Source: Actinomycetes bacterium
GTDB taxonomy: Bacteria > Actinomycetota > Acidimicrobiia > Acidimicrobiales > Ilumatobacteraceae
DNA length: 52,371 bases
Direction: 5' to 3'
Assembly: GCA_031423915.1 (NCBI GenBank)
Contig: JANPGL010000268.1
Location: 1 to 52,371, forward strand
The translations under genes were made by a program, and so were the position numbers. Positions 7,258 to 46,569 of the stretch are shown here, in pieces (the stretch's first letter is position 1; each line of letters begins with the position of its first letter). Below the pieces are notes generated by a model. It worked only from the letters and a program-made list of their open reading frames with translations. It was not told the origin of the DNA and made no database searches.

Positions 7258-7262
7258 CCGTC

Positions 7263-8051: not shown

Positions 8052-8060
8052 CGGCCCGCG

Positions 8061-12957: not shown

Positions 12958-13923
12958 ATGGCGATGGAGTATCGAAGGCTCGGACGATCGGGACTGCAGG
13001 TCAGCGTCCTCTCGTTCGGCTCGTGGGTCACGTTCGGCACCCAGCTCGACACGGGCCTGGCGCGCGACTGCATCGGCGCCGCCGTGGCCGCCGGCTGCAA
13101 CTTCTTCGACAACGCCGAGGCGTACGCCGGGGGCGAGTCGGAGCGGATCATGGGCGAGGCCATCGCCGAGCTCGGCCTCGAGCGCGAGTCGTACGTCATC
13201 TCCACGAAGTTCTACTGGGGCCTCGGATCCGGCCCGAACCGCAAGAACACGCTGAACCGCAAGTACCTGCTGTCGGCCATCGACGGCTCGCTCGAACGCA
13301 TGGGCCTCGACTACATCGACCTCGTCTTCTGCCATCGGGCCGACCCGAACACGCCGATCGAGGAGACGGTGTGGGCGATGCACGACATGATCGAGCGCGG
13401 CGCCGCCCTGTACTGGGGCACGTCGGAGTGGACGGCCGACGAGATCCGTGCCGCCATCGAGATCGCCGAGCGCCACCACCTGCGCAAGCCCGTGATGGAG
13501 CAGCCCCAGTACAACCTGCTGGAGCGCCGCCGGGTCGAGAAGGAGTACGCCCGCCTCTACGAGGACCACGGCCTCGGCACCACGATCTGGAGCCCCCTGG
13601 CGTCGGGCCTGCTCACCGGCAAGTACATCGACGGCGTGCCCGAGGGCTCGCGTGCCGACCTGCCCGGGTACGAGTGGTTGAGGCCGCGCCTCACCGACAC
13701 CAACAGCACCGCCAAGGTGACGGGCATCAAAGCGGTGGCCGACCGGCTCGGCGTGCCCATGGCGCAGCTCGCCATCGCCTGGTGCGCCAAGAACCCCAAC
13801 GTGTCGACGGTGATCACCGGCGCCAGCCGGCCCGAGCAGGTCGTGCAGAACTTCGGTGCGCTCGACGTCATGCCGCTGCTCACCCCCGAGGTGATGGCGG
13901 AGCTCGACCGGATCACCCGGTAA
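12958..13923 (+). CDS. Aldo/keto reductase (Kv-beta/Tas-like)
   Basis: [56 protein letters not shown]. Only the last third of the 970-aa ORF in this frame is credible. Confidence 0.92.
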
Positions 13924-13930
13924 ACCCGCC

Positions 13931-15424: not shown

Positions 15425-15518
15425 CCCGCCCGGGCCGGCATCAGGCATCCGAGGGTGCGGCCGGAGGTGCCCCGCCCCTAGGCTCGCAGGAACGACGGAC
15501 GGTCCAGGAGGAATCGCC

Positions 15519-17279
15519 ATGCTCGACTACGTGATCCGCGGCGGCACGATCGTGGACGGCACCGGCTCAACGGGCGTCGTCGGCGACGTGAGCGTGCAGG
15601 ACGGCAAGCTCGTCCAGGTGGGCGGCACCGTCACCGACGCGACGCGCCAGACGATCGACGCCGCCGGCGCCATCGTCACGCCGGGCTGGGTCGACGTGCA
15701 CACCCACTACGACGGTCAGGTGTCGTGGGACGACGCCATGGACCCCTCCGCCGGCAACGGCGCCACCACGATCGTGATGGGCAACTGCGGCGTCGGCTTC
15801 GCCCCCGTGCGACCGGGCCAGGAGAAGACCCTCATCGAGCTGATGGAGGGTGTGGAGGACATCCCCGGAACCGCGCTCTACGAGGGCATCGAGTGGGGGC
15901 GGTGGGAGAGCTTCGCCGACTACATGGACTACATCTCGTCCCGGTCGTACGCCCTCGACATCGGCGCCCAGATCGCCCACGGAGCGGTGCGCTACTACGT
16001 GATGGGCGAGCGCGGCGCCGCCAACGAGGACGCCACGGCCCACGACATGGCCGAGATGGCCCGGCTGGTGGCCGAGGCCATCGATGCCGGCGCGCTCGGC
16101 TTCTCGACCTCGCGCACCATCGGCCACCGCTCGCTGTGGGGCGCGCCGGTGCCCGGCACGTTCGCAGCCGACGAGGAGCTGCTGGCCATCGCCCGCGCCA
16201 TGGGCGGCGTCGGCAAGGGCGTGTTCGAGATGATCCCGGCCGGCACGGTGGGCAAGCTCGAGGCGCTCGGCGGCGAACGGACGACCCCCGAGGACGAGCT
16301 CGATCTGATGGACCGGGTGTCGCGCGCCGGCGGTCGTCCGGTGACCTTCACCCTCGTCCAGTCGCCCGACTACGCGCCCGACACGTGGCGCAAGCTTCTC
16401 GCCGCCACGCTCGAAGCCAACGCGACGGGCGCCAGGCTGTACCCGCAGGTGTCGTCGCGCCCGATCGGGCTGGTCACCGGGCTCACCGGCTACCACGCGT
16501 TCCAGCGCCGCCCCACCTACATGGCCATGGCGCACCTGCCGCTGGCCGAGCGCGTGCGCGAGATGGCCAAGCCCGAGGTGAAGGCCGCCATCCTGGCCGA
16601 GCCCGACGTGCGCGTGGAAGAGCCGGGCTCGATGGCCAACGTGTACGGCCTCATGCAGCGCGCCGCGCTGATCGTGTACCCGCTGGCCGACCCGGTGAAC
16701 TACGAGCCGGAGTGGAGCGACAGCCTGGGTGCCCGTGCCGCGGCGCGGGGCGAGGACATCCTGTCGGTCCTCTACGACTTCCTGCTGGAGGACGAGGGCC
16801 GTGCCGTCGGGTCCCTGATGGGCGGCGGCGACGTCAACGCCGCGCAGGACGTGGTGCGCGAGATGCTGGCCCACCCGGCCACGGTGACGGGCCTGTCCGA
16901 CGCCGGCGCCCACGTGACGCTGATCTGCGACGCCTCGATGCCCACGACCCAGCTGGCGTTCTGGGCCCGCGACCGCCGGCGCGGCGAGCAGCTGCCGCTG
17001 GAGTTCCTGGTCCACAAGCAGACGGCGCGCAACGCCGCGCTCTACGGCCTGGCCGACCGCGGCACCTTGGCGCCCGGGCTGCGCGCCGACGTGAACGTCA
17101 TCGACCTCGATCGCCTGTCGGTGGCCCCGCCCAAAGCGCACCGCGACCTGCCGGCCGGCGGCACCCGCCTCATCCAGCCGGTCACGGGTTACGTGGCCAC
17201 GCTGGTCAACGGCGTGTGCACCCGGGCGAACGACGCCGACACGGGCGAGCGCCCGGGCCGCCTGGTCCGCAGCCGCTAG
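15519..17279 (+). CDS. N-acyl-D-amino-acid deacylase (D-aminoacylase) family amidohydrolase
   Basis: [16 protein letters not shown]...[12 protein letters not shown]...[10 protein letters not shown]. 586 aa, typical of this family. Confidence 0.88.
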
Positions 17280-17295
17280 GCAGCGACGCCGGGGC

Positions 17296-17808
17296 TCAGT
17301 GGGGCAGGTCGGGGGCCATCGACACGACGGCGCGGCCGAACGGCTCGAGCTGACGGCCGACGAGGCGCTCGATGACCGAGATGCACTGGGCGCCCTCGGT
17401 CACGAGGCCCGACCAGCGGATGAAGCCACCCATGACCCCGGCGATGCGGTCCCCCACCTCTTCGGTGTGGACGATCACCTTGGTGTCCTGGCCCATCAGC
17501 CCCTGCAGCTCGCGGTACAGCGGCGGCAGCACCTCGCGCGGGTCGTCCCACGGCGCGAAGGGGCGATGCAGGTACGGCACGCCCAGCTCGTCGTAGTTGT
17601 GGAGGTTGTGCGGCGACGGGATCATCGAGATCACGCAGCCGAACCCCTGCTCACGGATCCAGATGATCTCTTCTTGCCGACGGACGCGACGATGGTTGTT
17701 GCCGTAGCCGTCCGGACGTTCGCACACCGCGAGGCGGTCCTTGATGATCCAAGCGAAGCTGCGGGGCTGGATCCCCTGTGCCCATTTGCCCTTCAGCCGC
17801 GGTGCCAT
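17296..17808 (-). CDS. Dual-specificity/tyrosine phosphatase-like protein with the catalytic Cys replaced (HTEEVGDR instead of HCxxGxxR)
   Basis: The DSP-like layout is GFGCVISM..YDELGVPYLHRPFAPWDD..KVIVHTEEVGDRIAGVMGGFI. The gene lies 12 nt downstream of the tilS stop. Family assignment rests on motif layout only. Confidence 0.5.
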   Translation of the reverse strand: MAPRLKGKWAQGIQPRSFAWIIKDRLAVCERPDGYGNNHRRVRRQEEIIWIREQGFGCVISMIPSPHNLHNYDELGVPYLHRPFAPWDDPREVLPPLYRELQGLMGQDTKVIVHTEEVGDRIAGVMGGFIRWSGLVTEGAQCISVIERLVGRQLEPFGRAVVSMAPDLPH

Positions 17809-17820
17809 GTTGCGGCGATT

Positions 17821-18714
17821 CTACGCTAAGCCAGCCTTCAACACCGTAAGTCTCTGTTGGTGGCGCTCCACGCGCACACCGCCCGCGATCTCGCAGCTGC
17901 GCACGTCACCCGCGGCGACGGCGAGAACCCGCGTCACCGCGTCGGCGTCGGGTGGGTAACCGCCCAGGTGAGGGGCCAGCCAGGCACGCACGGCGCGCCG
18001 CGCCAACGCCACCGGGGCGACCGCCAGCACGGGCGCGTCGGTGACGTCGAGCGCACCCGCCAGCTCGTCGAGCAGCGAGGCGTCGTCGCGCAGGAGCGCG
18101 GCCTGGCGGGCGAGCACGGCCGCCACGTCGCGGTCCGCGAGGCGATCGAGGAGCGGCAGCAGCTCGTGGCGGACCCGGTTGCGGCGGTGGACCGGATCGA
18201 GGTTCGACGGATCGGCCACCGGCGCCAGGCCGAGGACGTCGCACAACGCCACGGTCTCGGCCCGACGCAGGCCGAGCAACGGATGACGGTCGGCGCGCAT
18301 GCCGGCCAGGCCGTCGAGCCCCGCGCCGCGCAGCAGGTTGAGGAGCACGGTCTCGGCCTGGTCGTCCGCGGTGTGCCCGGTGAGCGCGTCCGCCGGCAAC
18401 ACGGCGTAGCGGGCCGCCCGGGCCCGCGCCTCCAGGTTGGGCCCGCGAGCGACGGTCACCCGTTCGGCCCGGAAGCCCGCCCCGAGACGGGACGCCGCAT
18501 CGGCCACCACGTCGGCCTCGGCCGCCGATCCGGGCCGAAGCCCGTGGTCGACGTGGACCGCCGTGGCGGTGCAGCCGGCCCGCACGGCCAGCGCCAGCAA
18601 CGCCAGCGAGTCGGCGCCGCCCGACACCGCGCAGGCCACGACCGCGCCGGACGGCGGGAAGGTGCAGCGGGTCAGCAGGTCGTCGGCCAGGCGGCTGGCG
18701 TCAGACGACCACAC
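17821..18714 (-). CDS. tilS: tRNA(Ile)-lysidine synthetase
   Basis: PP-loop VVACAVSGGADSLALL, followed by HVDHGLRPGS. The start is one of GTG 18714, 18720 or 18723 and overlaps the upstream gene end at 18701. Confidence 0.9.
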   Translation of the reverse strand: MWSSDASRLADDLLTRCTFPPSGAVVACAVSGGADSLALLALAVRAGCTATAVHVDHGLRPGSAAEADVVADAASRLGAGFRAERVTVARGPNLEARARAARYAVLPADALTGHTADDQAETVLLNLLRGAGLDGLAGMRADRHPLLGLRRAETVALCDVLGLAPVADPSNLDPVHRRNRVRHELLPLLDRLADRDVAAVLARQAALLRDDASLLDELAGALDVTDAPVLAVAPVALARRAVRAWLAPHLGGYPPDADAVTRVLAVAAGDVRSCEIAGGVRVERHQQRLTVLKAGLA

Positions 18715-19792
18715 GCGCACCACCGACCCGGGCGAGCCACGCCTCGGGCCGACGGATCTCGTCGAGCGTCGGCAACCGGTCGACGCCCTCCCAGCACCGA
18801 TCGACGGCCCGCGGTCCCAACGCGTCCTCGATGGCGGCCAGGAACGCCTCACCCTGGGCGTACTGGTTGAGCTTGGCCTCGAGGCCGAGCAGCTTCTGCG
18901 CCAGCAGGACGAGCGGGGCCTGCTGCTTGCGCCGCTCGCGCAGCACCCGGGCGAAGCGTTCGGCCGACGGCACGTGGCCCTCGCCGGCGCGGTCCATGGT
19001 CACGTCGCCATGGCCTTCGAGCAGGGCCATCAGGCCCCCGATCTGGCCGAGCACCTCCCGCTGGGCCGGCGAGGCCAGCACGGCGGCGATGCCCCCCTCG
19101 TCGAACGCCTTCATGCCGTCGCGCCGGATCGTGCGCATGCCCTGCCCGAGCACCTCGGTGAGGCCTCGGGCGTCGGGCGCGGCGAGCTGCAGCGACTGCT
19201 CGATGAGCGACAGGTAGTGATCGCGCATGAAGGGCACGCCGGTGAACTGGGCCCGGTGGGTCACCTCGTGGAGGCAGAGCCACAGGCGGAACTCGCGAGG
19301 GGGGAAGCCGAACCGCTTCTCGAGCGAGAGCAGGTTGGGACCGACGACGAACACGGTGTCGCCGGCCGCCGCGCCCTCGGGATCGGCCACCAGCAGGTCG
19401 TACTGGCCGAGGACCCGCTTCGACATCCAGCCGAGCAGGGTCCCGATCTCGGCGCCGGCGGCGACGCGTGTGGCGTGGCGGGCGATCGACCCCCCGGGTC
19501 CTGCGGAACCGAGCTTCTCGGTCCAGCGGTCGAGGTGCGGCCCGAGCAGCCGTTGGAAGGCCGCGATGTTGGCCCGCACCCAGCCGGCCCGGTCGACGAC
19601 GACGGCGTTGGCCGGACCGTGCACCGAACGCAGGCCGGTCACGTCGGCGACGAGTGCCTCGGCCAACGGGACGAGCTCGGCGACGTCGGGGCCGAGGGAA
19701 TCGGCGTGGTACGAACGCGACAGCTCGTCGTGACCCGCGACCTTGATCGCCACCCGTTCGGCCAGGGCCCAGTCGACCGGTCCCGCGGCCAT
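18701..19792 (-). CDS. Zinc-dependent metalloprotease (DUF2342 family, commonly found upstream of tilS in actinobacteria)
   Basis: HExxH motif as LHEVTHRAQF. 363 aa. Synteny with tilS matches the Rv3626c/Rv3625c-type arrangement, recalled from memory. Confidence 0.8.
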   Translation of the reverse strand: MAAGPVDWALAERVAIKVAGHDELSRSYHADSLGPDVAELVPLAEALVADVTGLRSVHGPANAVVVDRAGWVRANIAAFQRLLGPHLDRWTEKLGSAGPGGSIARHATRVAAGAEIGTLLGWMSKRVLGQYDLLVADPEGAAAGDTVFVVGPNLLSLEKRFGFPPREFRLWLCLHEVTHRAQFTGVPFMRDHYLSLIEQSLQLAAPDARGLTEVLGQGMRTIRRDGMKAFDEGGIAAVLASPAQREVLGQIGGLMALLEGHGDVTMDRAGEGHVPSAERFARVLRERRKQQAPLVLLAQKLLGLEAKLNQYAQGEAFLAAIEDALGPRAVDRCWEGVDRLPTLDEIRRPEAWLARVGGARVVV

Positions 19793-19811
19793 GGCGGCGA
19801 GCGCCTCGGCC

Positions 19812-19961
19812 CTACGGCTCCGAGCGCTGGTTGCGCTTGGGGTACTGGGGGGACGTGACGTTCTTCAGGTAGCCGAGCACCAGGCCCACCACGGTGAGCA
19901 CCGCGCCACCGAAGAGCGTGACCCCGATCCAGTAGTGCCAGACCTTCGCGGCGAGAAGCAT
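19812..19961 (-). CDS. Hypothetical 49-aa single-pass membrane protein
   Basis: MLLAAKVWHYWIGVTLFGGAVLTVVGLVLGYLKNVTSPQYPKRNQRSEP has one clear TM helix and a basic tail. No convincing SD, so the call is tentative. Confidence 0.4.
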   Translation of the reverse strand: MLLAAKVWHYWIGVTLFGGAVLTVVGLVLGYLKNVTSPQYPKRNQRSEP

Positions 19962-20038
19962 GAACGGCACTCTATCGGGGCCTTCGCGACTGCACCCAGC
20001 TCGCCCCGGGCCGTCCGGGCGACCGGTTCGGAGCGGCG

Positions 20039-20296
20039 TCAGGCCGGGTCGTCGGCGCGGTCCGGCGCGGCGTCCTCGCCGAAGCAGGCGCGGATCTTGT
20101 CGAGCAGACCGGCGGGCACCTCGGTCTCGCGGGCCTTCACCCGGATGACCATGCGCAGCTCGGCATGGAAGTCGAAGGCCTGCAGGCAGTCCATGCACCC
20201 GTCGAGGTGATGGCTGATCAGGTGCTGTTGCTCCGCCGGCACCTCGCCGTCGAGGAAGCGGTACAGCTCCCGCAGGGTCTCTTCGCAGTCAGCCAT
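20039..20296 (-). CDS. rsrA: Zinc-binding anti-sigma factor (ZAS family, RsrA/RshA-like)
   Basis: HxxxCxxC motif as HHLDGCMDC, plus an N-terminal Cys (MADCEETL). 8-nt overlap with the sigma-factor gene upstream. Confidence 0.92.
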
Positions 20297-33484: not shown

Positions 33485-34504
33485 GTGAACCGTGCCCTGC
33501 TCGCCGACCTCCAGCAGCGTCGCTGCTACCCGAGCGTCACCATCCTGCTCAACACCACGCCCGCGCCCGCGATGGCGGCCGACGACCGTCTCACGGCACT
33601 GCGGTTGGTGGAGAAGGCCGATCGGCGTCTTGCCGACGACGTGGACGGTGCGATCCGCACCGCGCTCGTCCTGAAGCTGACCGAGCTCGTGGCGGAGCAG
33701 GCGTCTCGCCGGACGACGATCGCCCTCGCCGTGTGCGTGTCGCCGGAGCACTCGGCCGTCGTCCCGCTCGGTCGGCCCGTCGACGCTCGCGTCGTCATCG
33801 ACGACACGTTCGCCACGCGGGACCTGGTCGCCGACCTCAATCGCACGGCGCTCTACCGCGTGGTCACGATCAGCGACCGTCGGGTACGCCTGTTCGTGGG
33901 CGACCGTCAGCGGCTGGTGGAGGAGCGCACGCCGTCGTGGCCGCTCGAGCGGACGGAGGACCAGAACCACGGCGCGTGGATGCGCCACGTGATCGCCCGC
34001 CTCGCCGCCGAGGAGGTGACCCATCCCCTGCCGACCGTGTTCGCTGGGGTCGATCGCACGGTGCGCCACCTCCTCACCGCCGACAGCGCGGGCACCGTCG
34101 GTGTCATCGGAGGCAACCACGACCGCACGTCCCACGTGCAGCTCCACCACGCCGCATGGCCACTCGTGACCGACTGGCTCCGCGGCGACCGGGACCGGGC
34201 GCTCGCCCGGCTCGACGAGGCCCGCTCGGCCCGACGGTACGCCAGCGGCATCGACGAGATGTGGGCGCTGGCCAACGACGGCCGCGTCGAGCTCGTCGTC
34301 GCCGAGGAGGGCTACCGCGTGGCGGCGCGGCTGGGCGACCACCACCAGCTCGTTCCCGCGGACGACGCCGAGGCCCCCGACGTCGTCGACGACGTGGTCG
34401 ACGACACCATCGAGCACGTGCTGCGCTGCGGTGGCGAAGCGGTGCTCGTGCCCGACGGCGACCTGTCCGCCCACGGGCGGATCGCCGGCATCCTGCGGTA
34501 CTGA
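33485..34504 (+). CDS. Conserved hypothetical protein, eRF1-like (bacterial baeRF-type release-factor-like family)
   Basis: The N-terminus LLADLQQRRCYPSVTILLNTTP and the C-terminus DDVVDDTIEHVLRCGGEAVLVPDGDLSAHGRIAGILRY resemble the baeRF families as I recall them. No GGQ motif is seen. Needs HMM confirmation. Confidence 0.45.
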   Translation: MNRALLADLQQRRCYPSVTILLNTTPAPAMAADDRLTALRLVEKADRRLADDVDGAIRTALVLKLTELVAEQASRRTTIALAVCVSPEHSAVVPLGRPVDARVVIDDTFATRDLVADLNRTALYRVVTISDRRVRLFVGDRQRLVEERTPSWPLERTEDQNHGAWMRHVIARLAAEEVTHPLPTVFAGVDRTVRHLLTADSAGTVGVIGGNHDRTSHVQLHHAAWPLVTDWLRGDRDRALARLDEARSARRYASGIDEMWALANDGRVELVVAEEGYRVAARLGDHHQLVPADDAEAPDVVDDVVDDTIEHVLRCGGEAVLVPDGDLSAHGRIAGILRY

Positions 34505-34505: not shown

Positions 34506-34904
34506 CTACCCAGCCCCGGCGTCGATCTCGGCGAAGACGGATTCGGCCACCTCGACCGACGACAGGCACACCGGGAACCCGGCGTACGGGATCATGTGCA
34601 CGAAGACCTCGAGCACCTCCCGGCGGGTGAAGCCCTGGTCGAGTGCCCCCTTGATGTGCACCTTGAGCAGCGTCGGCCGGCCCAGCGCAGCGATGGTGGT
34701 CATCGTGATGATGCGCCGGGTCTTGTAGTCGAGCGCGTCGCGCGCCCACACGTCGCCGAAGCAGAACTCGCCGAGCATGCGGTCGAGGTCGGGACCGACG
34801 ACCGGGTCGACGCGCTGCCAGCGCTGGAGGCCGGCACCGCTGCCGCCGGTCTCCTCCAGCACGCGCACGCCGGCTTCGTACCGGTCGGAATCGAACTCGA
34901 TCAT
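34506..34904 (-). CDS. Carboxymuconolactone decarboxylase (CMD/AhpD-like) family protein
   Basis: FCFGDVWARDALDYKTRRIITMTTIAALGR...EVFVHMIPYAGFP is typical of the CMD domain. ATGA overlap with the aminotransferase stop. Confidence 0.8.
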   Translation of the reverse strand: MIEFDSDRYEAGVRVLEETGGSGAGLQRWQRVDPVVGPDLDRMLGEFCFGDVWARDALDYKTRRIITMTTIAALGRPTLLKVHIKGALDQGFTRREVLEVFVHMIPYAGFPVCLSSVEVAESVFAEIDAGAG

Positions 34905-36301
34905 CGGGCTCCCCAGGGTCGGACGGCCGTGGCCGGACGCGTCAGGTGCGGCGGTGCGGGCGCACCGGCCGACGACGTGGCGGCATCGACGATCGACAGC
35001 CCCTCGTCGAGCACGCCGAGCGCCCAGTCGAGCTGATCGGTGGTGACGACCAGCGGTGGGTTGGCGAACAGGTAGCTGCCGCGCAGGTTGGCCAGCAGCC
35101 CCTTCGATGTCAGGAACGCTCGCAGCTCGCCCGCAGCGGGCCCGGTGGGGCCGACGATGGGGAACAGCTCGGCGCGCGTCTCGCGGTCGTGGACCAGCTC
35201 CATCACGGAGAACAGGCCGACGCCGCGCACGTCACCCACGCACGGGTGGCGCTCCTGCAGGGACCGCAGACCGGCGACCAGGTAGTCGCCCATCTTGGCC
35301 GAGTTCTCGATCAGCCCGTCGCTCTCGTAGATGCCCATCACGCACTTGGCGGCCGCCAGGCCGACCGCATGCGCCTGGTACGTGAGGCCGGAGCCGAACG
35401 GAACCTCGTCGATGGCCGCGGCCACGGCGTCGGACAGCACGCAGGCGCCCACCGGCAGGTAGCCGCTCGTGATGCCCTTGGCCACGGTCATGATGTCGGG
35501 GCTGACGCCCTCGTGGTCGACGGCGAACCACCGACCGGTGCGGCCGAAGCCGCTCATCACCTCGTCGCAGATCAACAGGATGCCGTGGTGGTCGCACAGC
35601 GCCCGCAGGCCGGCGAGCCAGCCGGCAGGCGGCACGATGAGCCCGTTCGAGCCGGTGACCGGCTCGACCATGATCGCCGCGATGGTGTGCGGCCCCTCCA
35701 GCTCGATGATCTGGTCCAGCTGGGCCAGATGGAAGTCACGGAACTCGGCGGCGTCCTCGATCCACGGGAACCGGTAGTGGTACGGATCGGGGATGCGCAC
35801 GATGTCGCCGACGCCACCTTCCACCGGATAGCGGCGCGGGTCGCCCGACGCGGCCAGCACCCCGGTGGTGGACCCGTGGTACGAGCGGTAGCGGGTCAGG
35901 ATCTTGCGCCGCCCCGTCACCAGCCGTGCCGTGCGGATGGCGGCCTCGTTGGCGTCGGCGCCGGCGAGCGTGAAGAACGCCTTGGTCATGCCCGCCGGGG
36001 TGAGGCGGGCGAGCATCTCGCCCACCTCCGCCCGGATCTCGGTGACCATGAACGGCGACACGAACGCCACCTTGGCCATCTGCTCGGCCACGGCGGCCGT
36101 CACGCGCTGGTCGCCGTGGCCGATGTTCACGCACATGGCGATGGAGTTGAAGTCCATGTACCGCGTGCCGTCACGCCCGTAGAGGTAGACGCCCTCGCCA
36201 CGTTCGATGCAGAGCGGGTCGACGTGCTGGTTGCCCCACTCGAACACCGTGTACGTCTTGGCCCGATCGACGATGGTCGCCGCGTCGGTGGTCACGCTCA
36301 T
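34901..36301 (-). CDS. Class-III (omega) aminotransferase, beta-alanine/taurine-pyruvate type
   Basis: MSVTTDAATIV...; AGADANEAAIR; LICDEVMSGFGRTGRWFA; PLP-lysine context DIMTVAKGITSGY. ATGA overlap on both sides. Confidence 0.9.
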   Translation of the reverse strand: MSVTTDAATIVDRAKTYTVFEWGNQHVDPLCIERGEGVYLYGRDGTRYMDFNSIAMCVNIGHGDQRVTAAVAEQMAKVAFVSPFMVTEIRAEVGEMLARLTPAGMTKAFFTLAGADANEAAIRTARLVTGRRKILTRYRSYHGSTTGVLAASGDPRRYPVEGGVGDIVRIPDPYHYRFPWIEDAAEFRDFHLAQLDQIIELEGPHTIAAIMVEPVTGSNGLIVPPAGWLAGLRALCDHHGILLICDEVMSGFGRTGRWFAVDHEGVSPDIMTVAKGITSGYLPVGACVLSDAVAAAIDEVPFGSGLTYQAHAVGLAAAKCVMGIYESDGLIENSAKMGDYLVAGLRSLQERHPCVGDVRGVGLFSVMELVHDRETRAELFPIVGPTGPAAGELRAFLTSKGLLANLRGSYLFANPPLVVTTDQLDWALGVLDEGLSIVDAATSSAGAPAPPHLTRPATAVRPWGAR

Positions 36302-37128
36302 GGCGCTCCCAACGCGGCGTACGTCTCGGGCCGCCGATCGCGCCACACCGGCAGCTGCAACCGGGCAGCCCGCAAGGCATCCAGGTCGAGGTCGGCCATC
36401 ACCACCTCCTCGGTGTTGCCGCCCTCGGACAGGATCTCGCCGTCGTAGTCGCAGAAGTAGCTGTGGCCGTAGAAGTCGTTCGGCCCCAGCGCCTCGAGGC
36501 CCACGCGGTTGTTGGTCCCCACGTAGTACCGGTTGGCGATGGCGTGCGCCCGCTGCTCCACGTGCCACGTCCGGTACGAGTGCCCGGACGTGGCCGACGG
36601 GATGAACACGATCTCGGCCCCGGCGAGCCCGAGGGCGCGTGCGCCCTCGGGGAAGCGCCGGTCGTAGCAGATGTACACGCCGATCCGGGCGAACCGCGTC
36701 TGGAACACAGGGAAGCCCAGGTTTCCCGGCTTGAAGTAGAACTTCTCGAAGAAGAACTCGCTCTGCGGGATGTGGGTCTTGCGGTACTTGCCCAGGTAGC
36801 TGCCGTCGGCGTCGATGACCGCGGCGGTGTTGTAGTAGGTGCCCATGTCGTCCTCGAACAGCGGGACCACGAGCACCACACCGAGCTCGGCTGCGAGGTC
36901 CGACATCGCCTTCACCGACGGTCCGTCGGGGATCGGCTCGGCGAGGTCGAACCACTCGGACGTCTCCACCTGGCAGAAGTACGGGCCGCTGGCCAGCTCC
37001 TGCAGACAGATGATCTGGGCACCACCGGCGGCCGCCTGACGCACGAGCGTGGCCTGGTGGTCGAGCATCGCCTCGCGGGGCGAGATGCCGTTGGTCTGGA
37101 TGAGCGCACAACGCACGTTGGCCGTCAT
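36298..37128 (-). CDS. Carbon-nitrogen hydrolase (beta-ureidopropionase / N-carbamoyl-amide amidohydrolase-like)
   Basis: Glu-Lys-Cys triad contexts are ICLQELA, YRKTHIP and VYICYDRRFPE. EKFYFKPGNLGFPVF is also present. Confidence 0.88.
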   Translation of the reverse strand: MTANVRCALIQTNGISPREAMLDHQATLVRQAAAGGAQIICLQELASGPYFCQVETSEWFDLAEPIPDGPSVKAMSDLAAELGVVLVVPLFEDDMGTYYNTAAVIDADGSYLGKYRKTHIPQSEFFFEKFYFKPGNLGFPVFQTRFARIGVYICYDRRFPEGARALGLAGAEIVFIPSATSGHSYRTWHVEQRAHAIANRYYVGTNNRVGLEALGPNDFYGHSYFCDYDGEILSEGGNTEEVVMADLDLDALRAARLQLPVWRDRRPETYAALGAP

Positions 37129-37141
37129 GGTGTCGGCCGCC

Positions 37142-38272
37142 TCACTTCTTGAACAGCACGGCGGGATCGAGGACGTCGGCCTTGAACGAGGCGCCCTTCT
37201 GGTCGGCGTCGGTGATGCCCTCCATGGCCTTCGTGCGGAAGCTCATGTCGACGGCGGCCGGGTCGGCGGCCTTCTTGAGCACCTTGAAGTTCAGCAGGAT
37301 GTCGGCCGTGTTCTTGAACATGGAGTCGGTCAGGTTCAGCACGCCGTTGGTCGAGGGCCACAGCAGCTTGTTGACCTCGTTCATCTGCCACGTCTGGAAG
37401 TTCTCGGGCAGCGCCGTGCCGTTCTTCAGCACCAGGCTCACGCAGTCCTTGGCGTTGTCCCGGCAGTAGATCCAGCCCTTGGCCGTCGCCCGCAGGAACT
37501 TCACGGCCGCCTCCGGGTTGGCGGTCAGCCACTTCTTGGACGTGGCGATCGTGTCCTCGAGGGTGGCCGTGCCCTCCTTGTTGAAGTCGAACACGGAGAT
37601 CTCGCGGCCGTTGGCGCCCGCCAACGCCTGGGCGTACTCGTTGTACGTCATGGCGCTGGCCAGGTCGATCTGACCGTCGAGGAAGGCGACCATGTCGAAG
37701 CCCTGGTTGAAGATCTTCACGTCCTTGTCGGTGTCGAGCGAGTTCTTGCCGGCGGTCGCCGCGAACGCCGGCTGGAAGCCGCCCCACAGTCCGACCGTCT
37801 TGCCCTTGAAGCTGGCGGCGGTGTCGAGGCCCTTGTCCTTGAACGACACGAGCCGGTAGGCGCCCCGCTCGAACGTCTGACCGATCGACACGATGTCCAC
37901 GCCGGTCTCCCGGGCGGTGAGCACGGCGCCGAACTGCTGGATGGCCAGGTCGGTGTCGCCGGTGGCGATCAGCTGGATCGGGTTGATGTCGGGACCACCC
38001 GGCTGGATGGTCACGTCGAGGCCCTCTGCTGCGTAGTAGCCCTTCTCCAACGCCGCGTAGTAGCCGGCGAACTGAGCCTGTGTCACCCACTGCAGGGTGA
38101 GCTTCACCTTGGTCTTGGCGCCGCCGGCGGTGGTGGCCTTGGCTCCGGCCGCGGTGGTGGCGGAACCGGCCGCGGTCGTGCCGCTGGAGCTGCCGGAACT
38201 CGAGCTGCCGCAGGAGGCGAGCAAGAGCCCGAGCACGGGCGCGGCGGTCAGGGACAAGCGCAATCTCTTCAT
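37142..38272 (-). CDS. ABC transporter substrate-binding lipoprotein (NMT1/THI5-like, NitT/TauT family)
   Basis: MKRLRLSLTAAPVLGLLLASCGSS lipobox, a Ser/Thr/Ala linker, then LQWVTQAQFAGYYAALEKGYY. GAGGGAAC SD lies before ATG 38272. Confidence 0.88.
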   Translation of the reverse strand: MKRLRLSLTAAPVLGLLLASCGSSSSGSSSGTTAAGSATTAAGAKATTAGGAKTKVKLTLQWVTQAQFAGYYAALEKGYYAAEGLDVTIQPGGPDINPIQLIATGDTDLAIQQFGAVLTARETGVDIVSIGQTFERGAYRLVSFKDKGLDTAASFKGKTVGLWGGFQPAFAATAGKNSLDTDKDVKIFNQGFDMVAFLDGQIDLASAMTYNEYAQALAGANGREISVFDFNKEGTATLEDTIATSKKWLTANPEAAVKFLRATAKGWIYCRDNAKDCVSLVLKNGTALPENFQTWQMNEVNKLLWPSTNGVLNLTDSMFKNTADILLNFKVLKKAADPAAVDMSFRTKAMEGITDADQKGASFKADVLDPAVLFKK

Positions 38273-38334
38273 CGTTCCCTCGTGGGTTGTGGTGTGGGAT
38301 GGGTGGGGTTCGGGGACTCGTCGGCGCGGCCGGA

Positions 38335-39129
38335 CTAGGGCCGGCGCCAGCGCAGGAGGTAGCGGTCGGCGAGCGACACCGCGCCGAAGCAGGCCAGGCC
38401 GAGCAGGCAGGACATGAGGATCGCCGACCACATCTCGAGGGTGTGCAGGTTGGTGCTCTCCCGCCGGATGTACGAGCCGAGCGTGGTGACCCGGCCGCCG
38501 AAGTACTGGGCGATCACGGCGATGATGATCGACGTCGGCACCGCGGTCTTCATGGCCGCCATGAGGTACGGCACCGAGCGGGGCAGCACCAGCAAGCGGA
38601 AGCGGATGCCGAACCCGGCCGAGATCGAGCGCATGAGCTCGTCCTGCTCGGAGCTGCCCGAGAAGCCGCGCACGGCGTAGGCGAACACGATGGGGGCCAC
38701 ACCGATGGCCACGATGGCGGTCACGGCCTTCGAGGTGATGCCGAAGAAGACGGTGCAGATCGGGTAGAGCGCCACGACCGGGAGCGCCTTGATGGTGGCG
38801 GCGTAGCTCTGGAGCGCCCGCGCCAGCCAGGCCACGCGGTAGGTGACCGCGGCCACGACCAGGGCGCCGAGCGAACCGACGAGCACGCCCTTGAACGCCT
38901 CCATGAAGGTGTTGCGAGCGAACTCGAACAGCTTCGAGAAGTCGTCGAAGAACTGGCCGACGATGGCGTGCGGCGACGGCAGGAGCAGCTGCTTCACGTC
39001 CCCGATCGACACCCAGGCTTCCCAGGCGCCGACGAACAGCCCGAACAGCACGGCGGGCGCCAGGTAACGGGACAGGTCCACCTTGCGTCGGGCGGCCGGC
39101 GGAGCGGCGGCGACGGTGGCGGCGCTCAC
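38335..39129 (-). CDS. ABC transporter permease (NitT/TauT family)
   Basis: 264-aa polytopic ORF. GTGA overlap with the ATPase gene stop. Confidence 0.85.
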   Translation of the reverse strand: MSAATVAAAPPAARRKVDLSRYLAPAVLFGLFVGAWEAWVSIGDVKQLLLPSPHAIVGQFFDDFSKLFEFARNTFMEAFKGVLVGSLGALVVAAVTYRVAWLARALQSYAATIKALPVVALYPICTVFFGITSKAVTAIVAIGVAPIVFAYAVRGFSGSSEQDELMRSISAGFGIRFRLLVLPRSVPYLMAAMKTAVPTSIIIAVIAQYFGGRVTTLGSYIRRESTNLHTLEMWSAILMSCLLGLACFGAVSLADRYLLRWRRP

Positions 39130-39962
39130 ACCGGACCACCCGACACGCTGGTCAGCTCGTGACGGACCCGGCTGACGAGCTCGTAGTACCGGGGATCGTC
39201 GCGCGTCTCGGCGGTGCGCGGCATCGGAAGGTCGATGTCGATCGTGGTCGTGATGCGACCCGGCCGCGGCGACATGACCACGACCTGGGTCGACAGGAAG
39301 ACGGCCTCGGCGATCGAGTGGGTGATGAACAGCACCGTCGGCGACAGCTGACGCCAGATGCTCATGAGCTCGAGGTTCAACCGGTCACGGGTGATCTCGT
39401 CGAGCGCACCGAACGGCTCGTCCATGAACAGCACGGACGGGCGCATCGAGAGCGCGCGGGCGATGGCCACGCGCTGCTGCATGCCACCCGACAGCTGGGC
39501 CGGGTAGCGGCTCTCGAAGCCGGTGAGCCCCACCAGGTCGAGCATGGCCCGGGCGGTGGCCTCGCGCTCGGGTCGGGCGACGCCCATGACCTGCAACGGC
39601 AGCATGGCGTTCTTGAGCACCGACTTCCACGGCAGCAGGTTGGGCGACTGGAAGACCATGCCGAACTCCCGACCGACCCGCGCCTCGTGCGGGTTCTTGC
39701 CGTTGACGCGCGCCGCTCCCGCCGTGGGCGTGAGGAGGTCGGCGAAGATGCGCAGCATCGTCGACTTCCCGCAACCCGACGGGCCGATGATCGAGACGAA
39801 GCCGCCCTGCACCACCGAGAGGTCCACGTCGTCGAGGGCCACGGTCTCCTCGCCGCGCGAGACGAACGTGTGGCAGAGCGCCGTGGCGGCGAGGCCGAGC
39901 GGGCGGCCGAGGGACGACGTCGGGGTGTCGACCGTGGTCGGGGTGGTGTCGACGTCGGGCAC
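39126..39962 (-). CDS. ABC transporter ATP-binding protein (NitT/TauT family)
   Basis: GPSGCGKST Walker [16 protein letters not shown] signature, [11 protein letters not shown] Walker B. GTG 39962 shares one nucleotide with the upstream TAG. Confidence 0.9.
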
Positions 39963-40834
39963 TAGAGCACCTCTCCTTGGGGACGGGACCCGGCCAGCAG
40001 GAAGCCGAGGAGGCGGATGCCGAGCACGAGCGAGCCACCCAGCACGCACGCACCGAGCGCCACGCAGTACAGGGCTCTCGGTTGGATCGTGTAGAACTGC
40101 CACGACGTGAGGATCATCACGCCGAGACCCTCCTTCGAGCCGAACGGCAGCTCGCCGACGATGGTGCCGACCACCGAGAACGCCGCGGCGGTCTCGAGAC
40201 CGACCATGATGAGCGGGAGCGCGTAGGGCAGCTCCACCTGGGTGAGCACGGTCCAGCGCGACGCGGCGTAGCTGTGCAGCAGATCGAGCGAGTCGCGTGG
40301 GACCGCCTGCATGCCGCGGGCCGTGGCCACCGTGACCGGGAAGTACGTGAGGTAGGTGGCGATGGCCACCTTCGTCGTCCACCCCGTGCCGAGCCACAGC
40401 ACCAACGCCGGGGACACCGCGACGATCGGCACCGTCTGGGCCGCCACGATGAGTGGGAGCAACCCGTTGCCGATCAGCTTGCTGCGGGCGATGAGCACCC
40501 CGGACGCGATGCCGAGCAGCGTGCCGCTGGCCAGGCCGAGCAGTGCGCCCCGGGCGGTCACGAGCATGTTCTTCAGCAGCAGCGGCCCGTAGGTCTCCTT
40601 CTTCGAGGTCTTCGAGCCGAGGTAGGAGACGATGTCCCAGAGGTGCGGCATCGTGCGGTCGCCGGTGTTCGTGACGAGCTTGATGCCCTCCCACAGGGCC
40701 ACCGCGATGGCCAGCAGCCCGACGGCCACCACGACCTGTCGGGCGATCCGCACCGCCAGGGAGGGCACGCCGGGGACCGGCGCGCCCGCCGTCACCTCGA
40801 CCACTCCCGGCCCCGCCACGGTCGCCGCCGTCAC
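39962..40834 (-). CDS. ABC transporter permease (NitT/TauT family), second copy
   Basis: GTG 40834 gives VTAATVAG...IARQVVVAVGLLAIAVALWEG... Polytopic. Only the C-terminal 290 aa of the 1207-aa composite ORF is credible. GTGA overlap with the LLM gene stop. Confidence 0.85.
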   Translation of the reverse strand: MTAATVAGPGVVEVTAGAPVPGVPSLAVRIARQVVVAVGLLAIAVALWEGIKLVTNTGDRTMPHLWDIVSYLGSKTSKKETYGPLLLKNMLVTARGALLGLASGTLLGIASGVLIARSKLIGNGLLPLIVAAQTVPIVAVSPALVLWLGTGWTTKVAIATYLTYFPVTVATARGMQAVPRDSLDLLHSYAASRWTVLTQVELPYALPLIMVGLETAAAFSVVGTIVGELPFGSKEGLGVMILTSWQFYTIQPRALYCVALGACVLGGSLVLGIRLLGFLLAGSRPQGEVL

Positions 40835-41892
40835 GCAGTGACCCCCGAAAGGTTGGCGGCCTTGGCCAGGGCCTCGAGCGTGGTGATCGGGTTCGGGCTG
40901 AGCGACGTGATGGCCGGCTCGGTGCAGCCGGCGTCGACCCACTCGCCGATCTTGTCGAGCGCCTGCGTCGACGTGCCGGCCGCACACACGGAGTGCACGA
41001 GCGAGTCGGGCACGAGCCGCATGGTGTGGCGCACCTGCGCCTTCGTCGCCGGCCAGGCCAGCTCGGCCTTGATGGCGTCGATCAACTCGGGATCGGCGCC
41101 GCACGTCTCGGTGATGTGGGGTTGCTGGGCGATGTACTGGGTGAGGAAGGCACGGCAGTCGTCGATGGCGCTCGCCGGATCGTGGTCGTCGGCCGACGCC
41201 GCCACCAGCTGGGGCACCTCGAAGCCGTCGAGCGATCGACCCGAGATGGCTGCGCCCTTGCGGACGGCGTCCATGGCCTCCCGGTTGTACGAGGGCGGCA
41301 CCAGGAAGTCGAGCAGCACGCCGTCGGCGATCTCGCCCGACAGCTGCACCATGCCCATGCGCACCGCACCGATGTAGATCGGCACCGGGTACGAGCGGCC
41401 GTCGTCGTCGTCCGGTCCGTCGAAACGGATGTCCTCCACGTTCACGAACTCGCCGGCGAAGCTCACGAGGTTGCCGCCGAGGAGCTCCTTGCAGACCGTG
41501 ATGACCTCGCGCATGGCCTTCAGCGGCTTGTGGTTCGGCAGACCAGTGCGGGTCGCCAGCGGCTCCCACCACGGGCCGAGACCGAGGCGGATGCGGCCGG
41601 GCGCCAGATCGTCGAGCGTCTTGAAGGTGACGGCCAGCAGCGCGGCGTTGCGGGTGCGGTACGGAAGGATGCCGCTGCCGATCTTGATGCGGCTCGTGCT
41701 GGCGGCGATGAGCGTCATGGGGATGACCGCGCTCTGGGCCAGGCGCCCCTCGCCCACCCACACCCCGGCGAAGCCGTGCTCCTCGGCCCACTGGGCCTGG
41801 GCCACCACCTCGGAGTAGGCCTTGGCGGGCTGACCCGACTCGGTCACCTTGCGCTGGCTGCCCGAGTTGATCATCAGTCCGAAGTTGAACAT
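40831..41892 (-). CDS. LLM-class (luciferase-like) flavin/F420-dependent oxidoreductase
   Basis: MFNFGLMINSG...AQWAEEHGFAGVWVGEGRL...IRLGLGPWW is typical of an LLM TIM barrel. GAGGGAG SD lies before ATG 41892. Confidence 0.85.
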   Translation of the reverse strand: MFNFGLMINSGSQRKVTESGQPAKAYSEVVAQAQWAEEHGFAGVWVGEGRLAQSAVIPMTLIAASTSRIKIGSGILPYRTRNAALLAVTFKTLDDLAPGRIRLGLGPWWEPLATRTGLPNHKPLKAMREVITVCKELLGGNLVSFAGEFVNVEDIRFDGPDDDDGRSYPVPIYIGAVRMGMVQLSGEIADGVLLDFLVPPSYNREAMDAVRKGAAISGRSLDGFEVPQLVAASADDHDPASAIDDCRAFLTQYIAQQPHITETCGADPELIDAIKAELAWPATKAQVRHTMRLVPDSLVHSVCAAGTSTQALDKIGEWVDAGCTEPAITSLSPNPITTLEALAKAANLSGVTA

Positions 41893-41983
41893 CGCTCCCT
41901 CTTCTCTTCGTTGGGAAGGTACGGGTCGGGTGTTTCGCCACCCGCGCCGTTCGGTGACGTCGATGGGAACACCGTCTGCACGA

Positions 41984-41999
41984 TGCGACACCGAACAAA
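41984..41999 (-). promoter_or_regulatory. 16-nt box TGCGACACCGAACAAA (sense TTTGTTCGGTGTCGCA), copy 1, about 92-107 nt upstream of the LLM gene
   Basis: Identical 16-mer recurs at 43535-43550. A companion box CCGTTCGGTGACG lies at 41946-41958. Confidence 0.5.
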
Positions 42000-42009
42000 C
42001 AGCGGGCGG

Positions 42010-43416
42010 TCAATGCAGGTACTGGCAGAGGTCGCGCTTCAGGAAGGAGCCGTCGCCGACGGTGCCGAGGTAGGACTCGCCGTCGACGATGACCTTGCCG
42101 CGCAACAGCACCTTGTCGACACGCCCGGCCACCTCGACGCCCTCGTACACCGAGTAGTCGACGTTCATGTGGTGCGTGGCCGCCGAGATCGTGCGCGATC
42201 GGGTCGGGTCGAAGATCACGAGGTCGGCATCGGATCCGGGCGCGATGGCGCCCTTGCGCGGGTACAGCCCGAACATCTTGGCGGGCGTGGTCGAACAGAT
42301 CTCGACCCACCGGTTGAGCGACGTGCGGCCCTTGGCCACGGCACCGTCGTACATGAGCTCCATGCGGTGCTCCACCCCCGGCACACCGTTGGGGATGTTG
42401 CGGAAGTCGTTGCGTCCCAGCGCCTTCTGCTCCCAGCAGAACGGACAGTGGTCCGTGGCCACCACCTGCAGGTCGTTCGTGCGCAGGCCGCGCCACAGGT
42501 CGTCCTGGTGCGAGCGTGGCCGCAACGGCGGCGAGCACACGTACTTGGAACCGTCGAAGTCGGGCCGTTCGAGGTCGCTCAGGTCGAGGAACAGGTACTG
42601 GGGGCACGTTTCGGCGAACACGTTCCAGCCCTTGTCGCGCGCCAACGCCACCTGCTCGAGCGCAGGCCCCGACGACAGGTGCACGATGTACACGGGCACG
42701 CCGGCCACGTGCGCCAGCGCAGCGGCGCGGTGCACGGCCTCGGCCTCGAGCACCGTCGGGCGCGTGAGCGAGTGGTACACGGGGTCGGTGTTGCCCCGTT
42801 CGACGGCCTGCTGGCGCAGCAGGTCCATGGCGATGCCGTTCTCGGCGTGCATCATGATGAGGCCACCGTTGTGGGCGGACTGCTGCATCATCCGCAGGAT
42901 CTGGGCGTCGTCCGAGTAGAGCGTTCCCGGGTAGGCCATGAACATCTTGAAGCTGGTGACGCCGTCGTCGACCAGGATGTCCATCTCCTTGGGTGACAGC
43001 TCGTCGACGCCGGTCGTCATCACGTGGAAGCCGTAGTCGACCGCGCACTCGCCCGCCGCGTTGCCGTGGTGGCGTTCGACGGCCTCGGTGATGCGCTCGC
43101 CCAGCCGTGGCACCGCGAAGTCGAGGACCGTCGTGGTGCCCCCGAAGGCCGAGGCGACCGTGCCGGTGCGGAACGTGTCGAGCACCGGGGCGATCTGGCC
43201 CTCCGAGCCGAAGTGGGTGTGGGCGTCGATGCCGCCGGGCACCACGAGGCGACCGGTGGCGTCGATGACGACGTCGGCCGACGCGGTGAACTGGCGGGAC
43301 AGCTCGCAGCCCTGGCGCACGACCGCGAGGATCTGCTCGCCCTCGACGAGGACGTCGGCGGCGACCGTGTCGGTGGCGGTCACCACGGTGCCGCCACGCA
43401 CGACGGTTCTGTTCAC
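42010..43416 (-). CDS. Dihydropyrimidinase / D-hydantoinase
   Basis: GGIDAHTHF (HxH), SFKMFMAY (carbamylated Lys), MHAENG, YIVHLSS, ATDHCPF. GTG 43416 is preceded by GAAGGAGGG. Confidence 0.93.
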   Translation of the reverse strand: MNRTVVRGGTVVTATDTVAADVLVEGEQILAVVRQGCELSRQFTASADVVIDATGRLVVPGGIDAHTHFGSEGQIAPVLDTFRTGTVASAFGGTTTVLDFAVPRLGERITEAVERHHGNAAGECAVDYGFHVMTTGVDELSPKEMDILVDDGVTSFKMFMAYPGTLYSDDAQILRMMQQSAHNGGLIMMHAENGIAMDLLRQQAVERGNTDPVYHSLTRPTVLEAEAVHRAAALAHVAGVPVYIVHLSSGPALEQVALARDKGWNVFAETCPQYLFLDLSDLERPDFDGSKYVCSPPLRPRSHQDDLWRGLRTNDLQVVATDHCPFCWEQKALGRNDFRNIPNGVPGVEHRMELMYDGAVAKGRTSLNRWVEICSTTPAKMFGLYPRKGAIAPGSDADLVIFDPTRSRTISAATHHMNVDYSVYEGVEVAGRVDKVLLRGKVIVDGESYLGTVGDGSFLKRDLCQYLH

Positions 43417-43534: not shown

Positions 43535-43550
43535 TGCGACACCGAACAAA
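43535..43550 (-). promoter_or_regulatory. 16-nt box TGCGACACCGAACAAA, copy 2, about 119-134 nt upstream of the hydantoinase gene and about 100 nt upstream of the divergent MocR gene
   Basis: Identical to 41984-41999. A companion box CCGTTCTCTGACG lies at 43520-43532. Confidence 0.5.
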
Positions 43551-45072: not shown

Positions 45073-46569
45073 ATGAAGATCGTCGTCGCCCAGATGGAGC
45101 ACGAGACCAACACGTTCTCACCGCTGCCCACCCCGTGGGAGTCGTTCGGGGCGCACGGCCCACTGCTGGGCGCCGAGGCGTTGGCGGGCATGCGAGGCAC
45201 CGGCACGGCCATGGGCGGCTTCCTCGCCGTGGCGGAGGCGGCCGGCGCCGAGATCGTCACGCCGATCGCCGCCTACGCCTCGCCGAGCGGACCGGTGGAC
45301 GGCGATGCCTACGACCGCATCTGCGACCTCATCTGCGCGGCCGTGGCCGAGGGCTGTGACGCGGTCTTCCTCGACCTCCACGGCGCCATGGTCGTGGCCG
45401 ACCGCACCGACGACGGCGAGGGCACGCTGCTCGAGCGGATGCGAGCCCTGGCGCCCGACACGATGATCGCCGTGGCACTCGACCTGCACGCCAACGTGAC
45501 CGAACGGATCGTGGCCAACTGCGACGTGCTCGCGGGGTACAAGACGTATCCGCACGTCGACATGGCGCGAGCCGGTGAGCTGGCCGGCTCGATCGCCCTG
45601 CGCGCGCTCGCCGGCGAGGTGCGCCCCGTGATGGCGTGGGGGAACGTGCCGATCCTGGCCCAGACCCTGAAGATGAACACGGCCGAAGGGGCCATGAAGG
45701 CGTTCGTCGACGAGGCCCGCGCCGCCGAACTGCGCGGTGCGTTGGCCGCCAGCCCGTTCGGCGGGTTCCCGATGGCCGACATCGCCGAGGCCGGCATGTC
45801 GACCGTGGTCGTCACCGATGGCGACCCCACCTCGGCCGCAGCCGCCCGCGACCGCATCCTGCGCGCCGCGTGGGCCGACAAGGACGACTTCGTGTGGCGC
45901 GACGAGCCCCTCACCGACGCCGTCGCCCGTGCCGCATCGCTGGCCGCCGCATCGTCGGCCCACGGGCCGGTCCTGCTCATCGACCACGCCGACAACTGCG
46001 CGTCGGGCGGCACCCAGGACACCATGCACGTGCTGGCCGAAGCGCTGCGTCAGGGCCTCACCGGCATCGCCGTCGGACCGGTGCGCGATCCCGGCGCGGT
46101 CGACGTGCTCGTGCGAGCGGGGCCCGGTGCCACGGTCACGCTCCCGGTGGGCGGCGTGTTCGACCTGCCGGCCATCGGGCGGCTCGCCGAGCCGCTCGAG
46201 CTCACCGGCGTGGTGCGGGCGATGACCGACGGCGAGTACACCATCACCGGCCCGCAGCTCACCGGTGTGCGTGCCCACATGGGCCGCACGGTCGTGCTCG
46301 ACACCGGGCCGGCGCAGGTGGTGATCACCGAGCGTCAGCAGGAGCCGTGGGATACCGGCGTGTTCACGAGCGTGGGCATCGACCCGACGCGGCAGCGGTT
46401 CCTGCTGTTGAAGAGCCGCATGTACTTCCGGCCCGTGTTCCTGCCGTTCGCTGCCGCCACGGTCTACTGCGACGGCGTGGGCGTCACCTCGTCGGACTGG
46501 ACCCGGTTCCGCTACACCAAGGTGCGCCGGCCGATCTTCCCGCTGGACGACACCGCCGCGTTCGCCTGA
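45073..46569 (+). CDS. M81 family metallopeptidase (MlrC-like)
   Basis: MKIVVAQMEHETNTFSP N-terminus and 498-aa length are typical of MlrC/DUF1485 proteins. Confidence 0.85.
   Translation: MKIVVAQMEHETNTFSPLPTPWESFGAHGPLLGAEALAGMRGTGTAMGGFLAVAEAAGAEIVTPIAAYASPSGPVDGDAYDRICDLICAAVAEGCDAVFLDLHGAMVVADRTDDGEGTLLERMRALAPDTMIAVALDLHANVTERIVANCDVLAGYKTYPHVDMARAGELAGSIALRALAGEVRPVMAWGNVPILAQTLKMNTAEGAMKAFVDEARAAELRGALAASPFGGFPMADIAEAGMSTVVVTDGDPTSAAAARDRILRAAWADKDDFVWRDEPLTDAVARAASLAAASSAHGPVLLIDHADNCASGGTQDTMHVLAEALRQGLTGIAVGPVRDPGAVDVLVRAGPGATVTLPVGGVFDLPAIGRLAEPLELTGVVRAMTDGEYTITGPQLTGVRAHMGRTVVLDTGPAQVVITERQQEPWDTGVFTSVGIDPTRQRFLLLKSRMYFRPVFLPFAAATVYCDGVGVTSSDWTRFRYTKVRRPIFPLDDTAAFA

Follow-up and report, generated by a model that had tools for sequence, protein, structure and literature searches.

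A candidate F420-dependent ring reductase in an accessory dihydropyrimidinase module of an Ilumatobacteraceae genome

How might an operon for the reductive breakdown of pyrimidines work if the reductase PydA is missing from it? The question is raised by contig JANPGL010000268.1 (assembly GCA_031423915.1) from an Actinomycetes bacterium of the Ilumatobacteraceae, whose 52,371 nucleotides form the window analysed here. A first-pass annotation of its letters had described nine co-directional genes at 34506-43416 as bringing PydB, PydC and PydD homologues together with an importer, but without a PydA or a malonic-semialdehyde reductase. By homology this holds, albeit with PydC and PydD homologues that pass no specific family cut-off, and the array contains neither of the two missing enzymes nor any semialdehyde dehydrogenase. 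What stands where PydA would be is, judging from family models and a predicted structure, most likely an uncharacterised F420-dependent ring reductase of the luciferase-like (LLM) class. To our minds, and with a probability of roughly 0.5, the array is an accessory, MocR-controlled reductive module in which a substituted pyrimidine would be imported, reduced at C5=C6 with F420H2, ring-opened, decarbamoylated, transaminated and decarboxylated. All nine reading frames are open, their order and coordinates are as first given and family scans uphold each assignment:

42010-43416, minus strand: HydA, dihydropyrimidinase/hydantoinase, 468 aa (TIGR02033, 565.6 bits against a cut-off of 393.25; PDB alignment; tree)
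40831-41892, minus strand: Mer-like LLM of the GEGRL clade, 353 aa, candidate F420H2-dependent pyrimidine C5=C6 reductase (HMMs, model, fold search, tree)
39962-40834, minus strand: ABC permease 1, GTGA-coupled to the LLM (PF00528)
39126-39962, minus strand: ABC ATPase of the TauB/NrtD type (family scans)
38335-39129, minus strand: ABC permease 2 (PF00528)
37142-38272, minus strand: NMT1/THI5-like solute-binding protein, probable lipoprotein (PF09084, E 8e-45)
36298-37128, minus strand: nitrilase-family N-carbamoylase (CN-hydrolase), beta-ureidopropionase-like (PF00795; PDB matches; subfamily comparison; tree)
34901-36301, minus strand: class III omega-aminotransferase (6JIX, E 1e-91; own clade, support 99)
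34506-34904, minus strand: CMD-family protein, candidate decarboxylase (PF02627)

Five of the eight junctions overlap, among them the GTGA coupling of LLM and permease that had been pointed out before (overlap -4), and the remaining gaps measure 117, 62 and 13 nt. According to family scans, the transporter is TauABC-like with an NMT1 binding protein, whose solved relatives include an aminopyrimidine binder.

In sequence profile and predicted fold, a TIM barrel, the LLM resembles Mer (F420-dependent methylene-tetrahydromethanopterin reductase). Its best hidden Markov model (HMM) matches are Mer models, all of them under cut-off, its closest solved relatives are Mer enzymes too, and a predicted model (pLDDT 93.9) retrieves Mer as top structural matches (TM 0.80-0.84). 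In the tree it belongs to a small clade of its own, marked by the motif GEGRL (support 98), with an AEGRL clade adjoining and both near a large QA(E/D)SRL group. Support for GEGRL, AEGRL and QAESRL together against the outgroups is weak (55-80), and we propose the sister relation of GEGRL and QA(E/D)SRL also because of identity (44% versus 26%). Above 52% identity to the LLM there are about 67 clusters among the candidates scored, compared with thousands of more distant relatives. Membership in TIGR03842 was considered and rejected, the score being 72.7 bits against a cut-off of 295 and the grouping failing an approximately unbiased (AU) test (p 0.019).

Elsewhere in the genome no PreT/PreA was found by a search for pydA/preTA (best PreA score 93.6 against a cut-off of 335), and all PF01180 and PF14691 matches are accounted for by PyrD beside a CarB-like gene, a DHOD-like gene beside PFOR and GltD beside GltB. 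PreA also stayed below its cut-off in all 22 genomes that carry the same LLM. F420 itself is probably at hand: homologues of cofC, cofD, cofE, fbiC and Fno are present in the genome, cofD exceeds its cut-off in 17/22 carriers, an F420-dependent G6P dehydrogenase (FGD) gene lies directly 3' of hydA in L015, L017 and L020 (L-numbers denote compared loci, G-numbers genomes, G000 being that of the window, and C-numbers its contigs), and Fno, cofC and fbiC sit within a Streptomyces operon of the AEGRL sister clade. So with a Mer fold, cof genes in the genome and PreA lacking here and in the 22 carriers, an F420-dependent substitute for PydA, one of several options in the first-pass annotation, is supported as the most likely role of the LLM.

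The module recurs in some 38 distinct loci of Actinomycetota and Chloroflexota (43 GEGRL loci counted, each of at least 9 kb), counts that include metagenome-assembled genomes (MAGs), kin and about five duplicated loci and are not independent. Gene order varies among these loci, which come from Acidimicrobiia, Aeromicrobium, Actinotalea, Cellulomonas, Nanopelagicales and Dehalococcoidia, and the LLM is joined by CN-hydrolase in 39, HydA in 38, NMT1 and aminotransferase in 36 each and CMD in 31 of the 43; a cytosine-deaminase-family gene adjoins in five. The closest named homologues are from Acidimicrobiia. Approached from the other side, the CMD subfamily is specific to the GEGRL module: at 50% identity or more, a GEGRL LLM adjoins in 22 of 28 CMD loci, and below 50% in none. 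Two loci keep just CMD and LLM and two have CMD without this aminotransferase, a co-occurrence that ties CMD to the LLM and suggests it may act either directly after the LLM or after transamination. The protein belongs to the Pfam CMD family, yet misses the TIGR02425 (PcaC) cut-off (73.4 versus 155.7), lacks the AhpD CxxC motif and in an ESM Atlas search met generic CMD clusters only. In the literature searched, most subscription papers lying outside it, the module is undescribed, including under TIGR03842 and under F420 with dihydropyrimidinase or uracil.

Some copies differ in their surroundings. Aeromicrobium flavum (L017, 6829-21053), and likewise L020, has two tandem GEGRL LLM paralogues, about 56% identical to that of the window, with FGD, a cytosine-deaminase-family gene, fbiC and cofD nearby, and in L017 a TIGR03842 module directly follows. 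Marine Acidimicrobiales loci (L002, L004, L005, L007-L010) carry a HisC-like aminotransferase and an MmgE/PrpD-family gene 5' of the LLM, where other copies have MlrC or else an M20 hydrolase. L169 and L172 have a RidA-family gene between CMD and LLM, then GntR, an aldehyde dehydrogenase and a polysaccharide-deacetylase-family gene.

What reaction such an LLM could catalyse is hinted at by its relatives. The nearest large LLM clade (42-47% identity), the QA(E/D)SRL group, is SsnA-linked, a connection to purine breakdown that the first-pass annotation had missed. Neighbours in its 143 loci include SsnA (87), Xdh (74), cof genes (59) and Fno (46). This group corresponds to the putative F420-dependent luciferase-family isoxanthine (2,8-dioxopurine) reductase which was proposed, without assay, for SsnA clusters of Chloroflexota and would reduce the pyrimidine ring before its hydrolytic opening (Li et al. 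2025, PMC12507026). By analogy, the chemistry proposed there is the same that would be required of the window's LLM. The isoxanthine-type gene (G000:C43 10461-11468, L090) is itself near-core in the Acidimicrobiia family (29/36), often in the order Xdh-SsnA-LLM (L099-L107; L024, L032), and the window's genome further holds homologues of SsnA (C546), YgeW and YgeY (both C203), but no YgfK, which suggests that the 2,8-dioxopurine pathway has an F420-based variant in Actinomycetota. A third module type is built around AEGRL LLMs (L171 from Streptomyces sp. AD55, 6292-20222; L014, 1-4391; L174, 10814-15459) and combines a PF06684 protein, aminotransferase, HydA, LLM, CN-hydrolase and NMT1-ABC with F420 supply genes of its own (Fno, cofC, fbiC). 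There is also a RutA-like LLM in the genome (G000:C232 10844-11902; 222 versus 498 bits, below cut-off; 35% identity to E. coli RutA), with creatininase-like and glutamine-synthetase-like genes as neighbours.

Three enzymes downstream of the putative reduction step depart from their standard paralogues. HydA forms its own clade (support 100/96), sister to standard actinobacterial HydA and apart from E. coli HyuA. Aligned with solved enzymes, it retains the binuclear metal ligands and the catalytic Tyr, Ser, Asn and Asp, but its SGL1 gate loop, which shapes substrate preference in the Geobacillus hydantoinase (PMC7175128), is remodelled: Met63 is Ser and Phe65 is Gly (Geobacillus numbering), so that the standard hydrophobic gate is gone, and the MxxPF gate is lost in every such HydA examined. 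The carbamoylase, in alignment only, replaces large residues invariant in standard paralogues by small ones (W14G, F46A, Y47S/T, W163A), and the aminotransferase, whose closest solved relative is taurine:2-oxoglutarate aminotransferase (6JIX), has an invariant Glu21 in place of Ser. In trees, the latter two also branch apart from standard paralogues. Together, the lost gate and these residue changes suggest that the substrate may be bulkier.

What the first-pass annotation had not noticed is another, more standard module of this genome, located on contigs C36 and C365, with aminotransferase, CN-hydrolase, HydA, NMT1 transporter and a true TIGR03842 LLM (602 bits, C365). Its hydA is split over the ends of the two contigs with some 50 residues missing, probably an assembly gap, and for this reason C36 and C365 are probably adjacent; its NMT1 protein is 44% identical to that of the array. 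While this TIGR03842 module is near-core in the family (29/36 genomes, usually with MmsA), a search of 60 relatives, one of them a complete genome of the same genus, did not find the window's GEGRL LLM, the matches there being the purine-type paralogue. Both module types coexist in the window's genome and four other carriers, and are adjacent in L016 and L017. Since the genome thus has the more standard set with its true TIGR03842 LLM, the array looks like an accessory duplicate and probably does not serve as the routine uracil route.

Control of the array may be read from its upstream flank, where a divergent regulator is followed by the only MlrC/M81 hydrolase of the genome:

43648-45021, plus strand: MocR/GabR-family PLP-binding regulator, PtsJ-like, divergent (PF00392 and PF00155)
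45073-46569, plus strand: MlrC/M81 metallo-amidohydrolase, probable accessory gene (PF07364 and PF07171)
43535-43550, minus strand: operator/promoter-like 16-mer TTTGTTCGGTGTCGCA before hydA (direct comparison)
41984-41999, minus strand: second copy of the TTTGTTCGGTGTCGCA 16-mer before the LLM, probable ancestral operon start (direct comparison)

A MocR gene adjoins the module in L015-L017, L020, L022, L170 and L245 as well, and MlrC orthologues (56-63%) lie directly 5' of the LLM in L013, L014, L021 and L174. TTTGTTCGGTGTCGCA occurs exactly twice in the 6.1 Mb genome, 5' of hydA and 5' of the LLM, and resembles a TTGTYCRGTWACAA-like box that other genomes have in front of related MocR-linked operons of both module types; a general repeat search returned GC-rich noise only. 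With identical 16-mers in front of both genes, the array probably has two transcription starts. Its closest homologue (L016) starts with the LLM behind a similar leader and ends with hydA, from which it would appear that hydA moved to the front of the window's array and the operator was duplicated. We reject a longer reading of the LLM from a GTG at 41991, for this codon falls inside the operator whereas 41892 has a ribosome-binding site and agrees with homologues. At the other end, a baeRF3-family gene (33485-34504) converges on the CMD gene, their stop codons one base apart and without room for a terminator.

As to cofactor, reactions, substrate and CMD chemistry, the module could work as follows. 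The NMT1-type ABC system would import the pyrimidine, the LLM would move a hydride from F420H2 to C6, HydA would open the dihydro ring, the CN-hydrolase would strip the carbamoyl group and the aminotransferase would take the beta-amino nitrogen. CMD might decarboxylate a beta-carbonyl acid, be it the semialdehyde after transamination or, directly upon the LLM step, 5-carboxy-dihydrouracil. As preferred substrate we consider a derivative of uracil or cytosine most likely, substituted and probably modified at C5, with plain uracil and thymine going through the TIGR03842 module. With somewhat less confidence, we propose that several LLM ring reductases have arisen in bacteria that use F420 (isoxanthine-type, AEGRL, GEGRL and the unrelated TIGR03842) and that each stands at the head of its own hydrolase module. 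Within this set, the GEGRL module may represent an undescribed route for modified nucleobases (e.g. 5-carboxy-, 5-hydroxymethyl-, 5-hydroxy- or 5-amino-uracil/cytosine) including a new CMD-fold decarboxylase.

Several observations weigh against this reading. TIGR03842 was not found in 18/22 carriers (mostly incomplete MAGs) and the module's HydA is the sole full dihydropyrimidinase in some of them (G068, G075, G079), so uracil and thymine may be accepted as well. SGL1 varies among the HydA members and hence indicates no single substituent, the carbamoylase changes come from alignment, and CMD is absent from several marine Acidimicrobiales copies. Finally, the isolate Actinotalea fermentans (L015/G075) has module and FGD, yet cofD was not found in its genome; scavenging of F420 or a recently acquired, idle module are possible explanations.

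The first of these points feeds the alternative that survives best, though we hold it to be rather unlikely, namely that the LLM is a second, independently recruited F420-dependent uracil/thymine reductase and the module an ordinary Pyd pathway in which CMD does the work of malonate-semialdehyde dehydrogenase. Consistent with such an isofunctional duplicate, no reductive module other than this one was found in several carriers, its HydA is sister to the standard enzyme, the MocR-type box is common to both module types, a cytosine deaminase-like gene is near in five loci and MmsA, which usually comes after hydA in standard modules, has no counterpart here. Against it, the array is kept beside a complete TIGR03842 module, Aeromicrobium has two tandem GEGRL LLMs plus TIGR03842, and the pocket changes are consistent across two hydrolases.

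A reductive purine branch strikes us as improbable. Here, the LLM would reduce isoxanthine or 5-amino/5-ureido-uracil, HydA would open ureidomethylhydantoin or 5-ureido-dihydrouracil, and carbamoylase plus either MlrC or an M20 hydrolase would remove both ureido groups. The SsnA/Xdh-linked nearest clade, the second amidohydrolase (M81 or M20) often 5' of the LLM, marine copies among purine genes (L005, L007) and an enlarged HydA pocket that would suit a ureido substituent speak in its favour. Yet SsnA is beside the GEGRL LLM in 0/43 loci, HydA and E. coli HyuA do not cluster in the tree, the LLM no longer has the YLQD, His and Gln residues that are invariant in its purine-type relatives, and a true isoxanthine-type LLM is kept as a separate gene in 13/22 carriers and the window's genome (it was not found in Aeromicrobium, Actinotalea and two Dehalococcoidia carriers).

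Fainter again is the case for a hyu-like cluster, one of the options in the first-pass annotation, that would handle an imported, already reduced hydantoin or cyclic ureide while the LLM acts elsewhere (e.g. in side-chain oxidation) or is a passenger. Enlarged pockets do favour 5-substituted hydantoins (PMC7175128), and L002, L004 and L005 have LLM, CN-hydrolase and HydA without a transporter; but no partner is more constant than the LLM, which is also translationally coupled, the aminotransferase is of the omega/beta-amino type, the carbamoylase is much nearer to beta-ureidopropionase-type paralogues than to D-carbamoylase, and a racemase is absent.

We give next to no credence to a RutA-like flavin monooxygenase and hybrid oxidative/reductive route, which the first-pass annotation had raised given that RutA, too, is of the LLM class: the window's LLM is not among TIGR03612 (RutA) matches at E 1e-15, shows no RutA model among its listed family hits, has no BLAST match to E. 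coli RutA and finds RutA at rank 40 of the fold search (TM 0.66, 16% identity), RutB, RutD and RutF are absent from the array, as are flavin reductase, RutB and RutD from the other loci, and a ring-opened RutA product needs no dihydropyrimidinase. That a grouping with RutA was not rejected by the AU test (p 0.21) is due to RutA being an uninformative long branch, and so, while the LLM comes out as not RutA-like and with F420-type Mer relatives, the tree itself cannot place RutA. A thiamine-pyrimidine (HMP) route, brought up by NMT1, M20 and a TenA-like gene in L007, L008 and L011, was set aside because a carbamoylase points to a 2-oxo ring, and because the TenA-like reading frame, a truncated one, has no Pfam match. 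Of the earlier pyrimidine-route proposal, an F420 ring reductase in the position of PydA is supported as most likely and the RutA hybrid is not supported.

The array comes from a 95.7% complete bin, and contigs from a public run, which may be the source sample itself, span its LLM-hydA and hydA-MocR-MlrC junctions. Runs best matching the array DNA are from freshwater sediment; no RNA run is among those listed as carrying it. New here are a second LLM lineage and the link of this lineage to the isoxanthine reductase, together with a dedicated CMD and two coexisting modules. If our preferred reading of a module for substituted pyrimidines is true, it would provide a small iron-sulfur-free enzyme for pyrimidine dearomatisation, a recycling route for modified bases, whose fate is poorly known in soil, sediment, sponge and marine bacteria, and a role for an orphan CMD subfamily. 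The question is directly testable, since culturable Aeromicrobium flavum NBRC 107625 combines a GEGRL and a TIGR03842 module with FGD and cof genes in roughly 25 kb.

Compared with known systems, the LLM shares with Mer, its best structural and HMM match, a hydride-transfer fold, but is about 25% identical in the fold alignment, far under the family cut-off, does not keep the His of the Mer DH motif and has no methanopterin context. SSGG-03002/NpsU of mureidomycin and napsamycin, which we take to be LLM-class as well, is a putative F420/FMN oxidoreductase that reduces a uracil C5=C6 bond and so offers a precedent for the proposed reaction. The evidence in mureidomycin is genetic and from NMR (PMC10714638), and the enzyme serves in biosynthetic tailoring of a nucleoside peptide. 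With the isoxanthine reductase the window's LLM has Glu48, Arg50 and the WW-P and QQPH motifs in common, though with GEGRL in place of QA(E/D)SRL and with HydA, carbamoylase, aminotransferase and CMD as partners, never SsnA. The TIGR03842 (CPS_4043) module of Actinomycetota has the same MocR, CN-hydrolase, HydA, aminotransferase, NMT1-ABC and F420-type LLM, equally without PydA; its LLM is about 26% identical and not monophyletic with ours, and it keeps the standard HydA gate. As in the Pyd pathway (PydA or PreT/PreA, PydB, PydC, PydD, PydE), dihydropyrimidinase, carbamoylase, omega-aminotransferase and importer share one operon, but in the array an F420-type LLM stands in for the flavin/Fe-S dehydrogenase, CMD takes the place of the semialdehyde dehydrogenase/reductase, and the pockets are remodelled.

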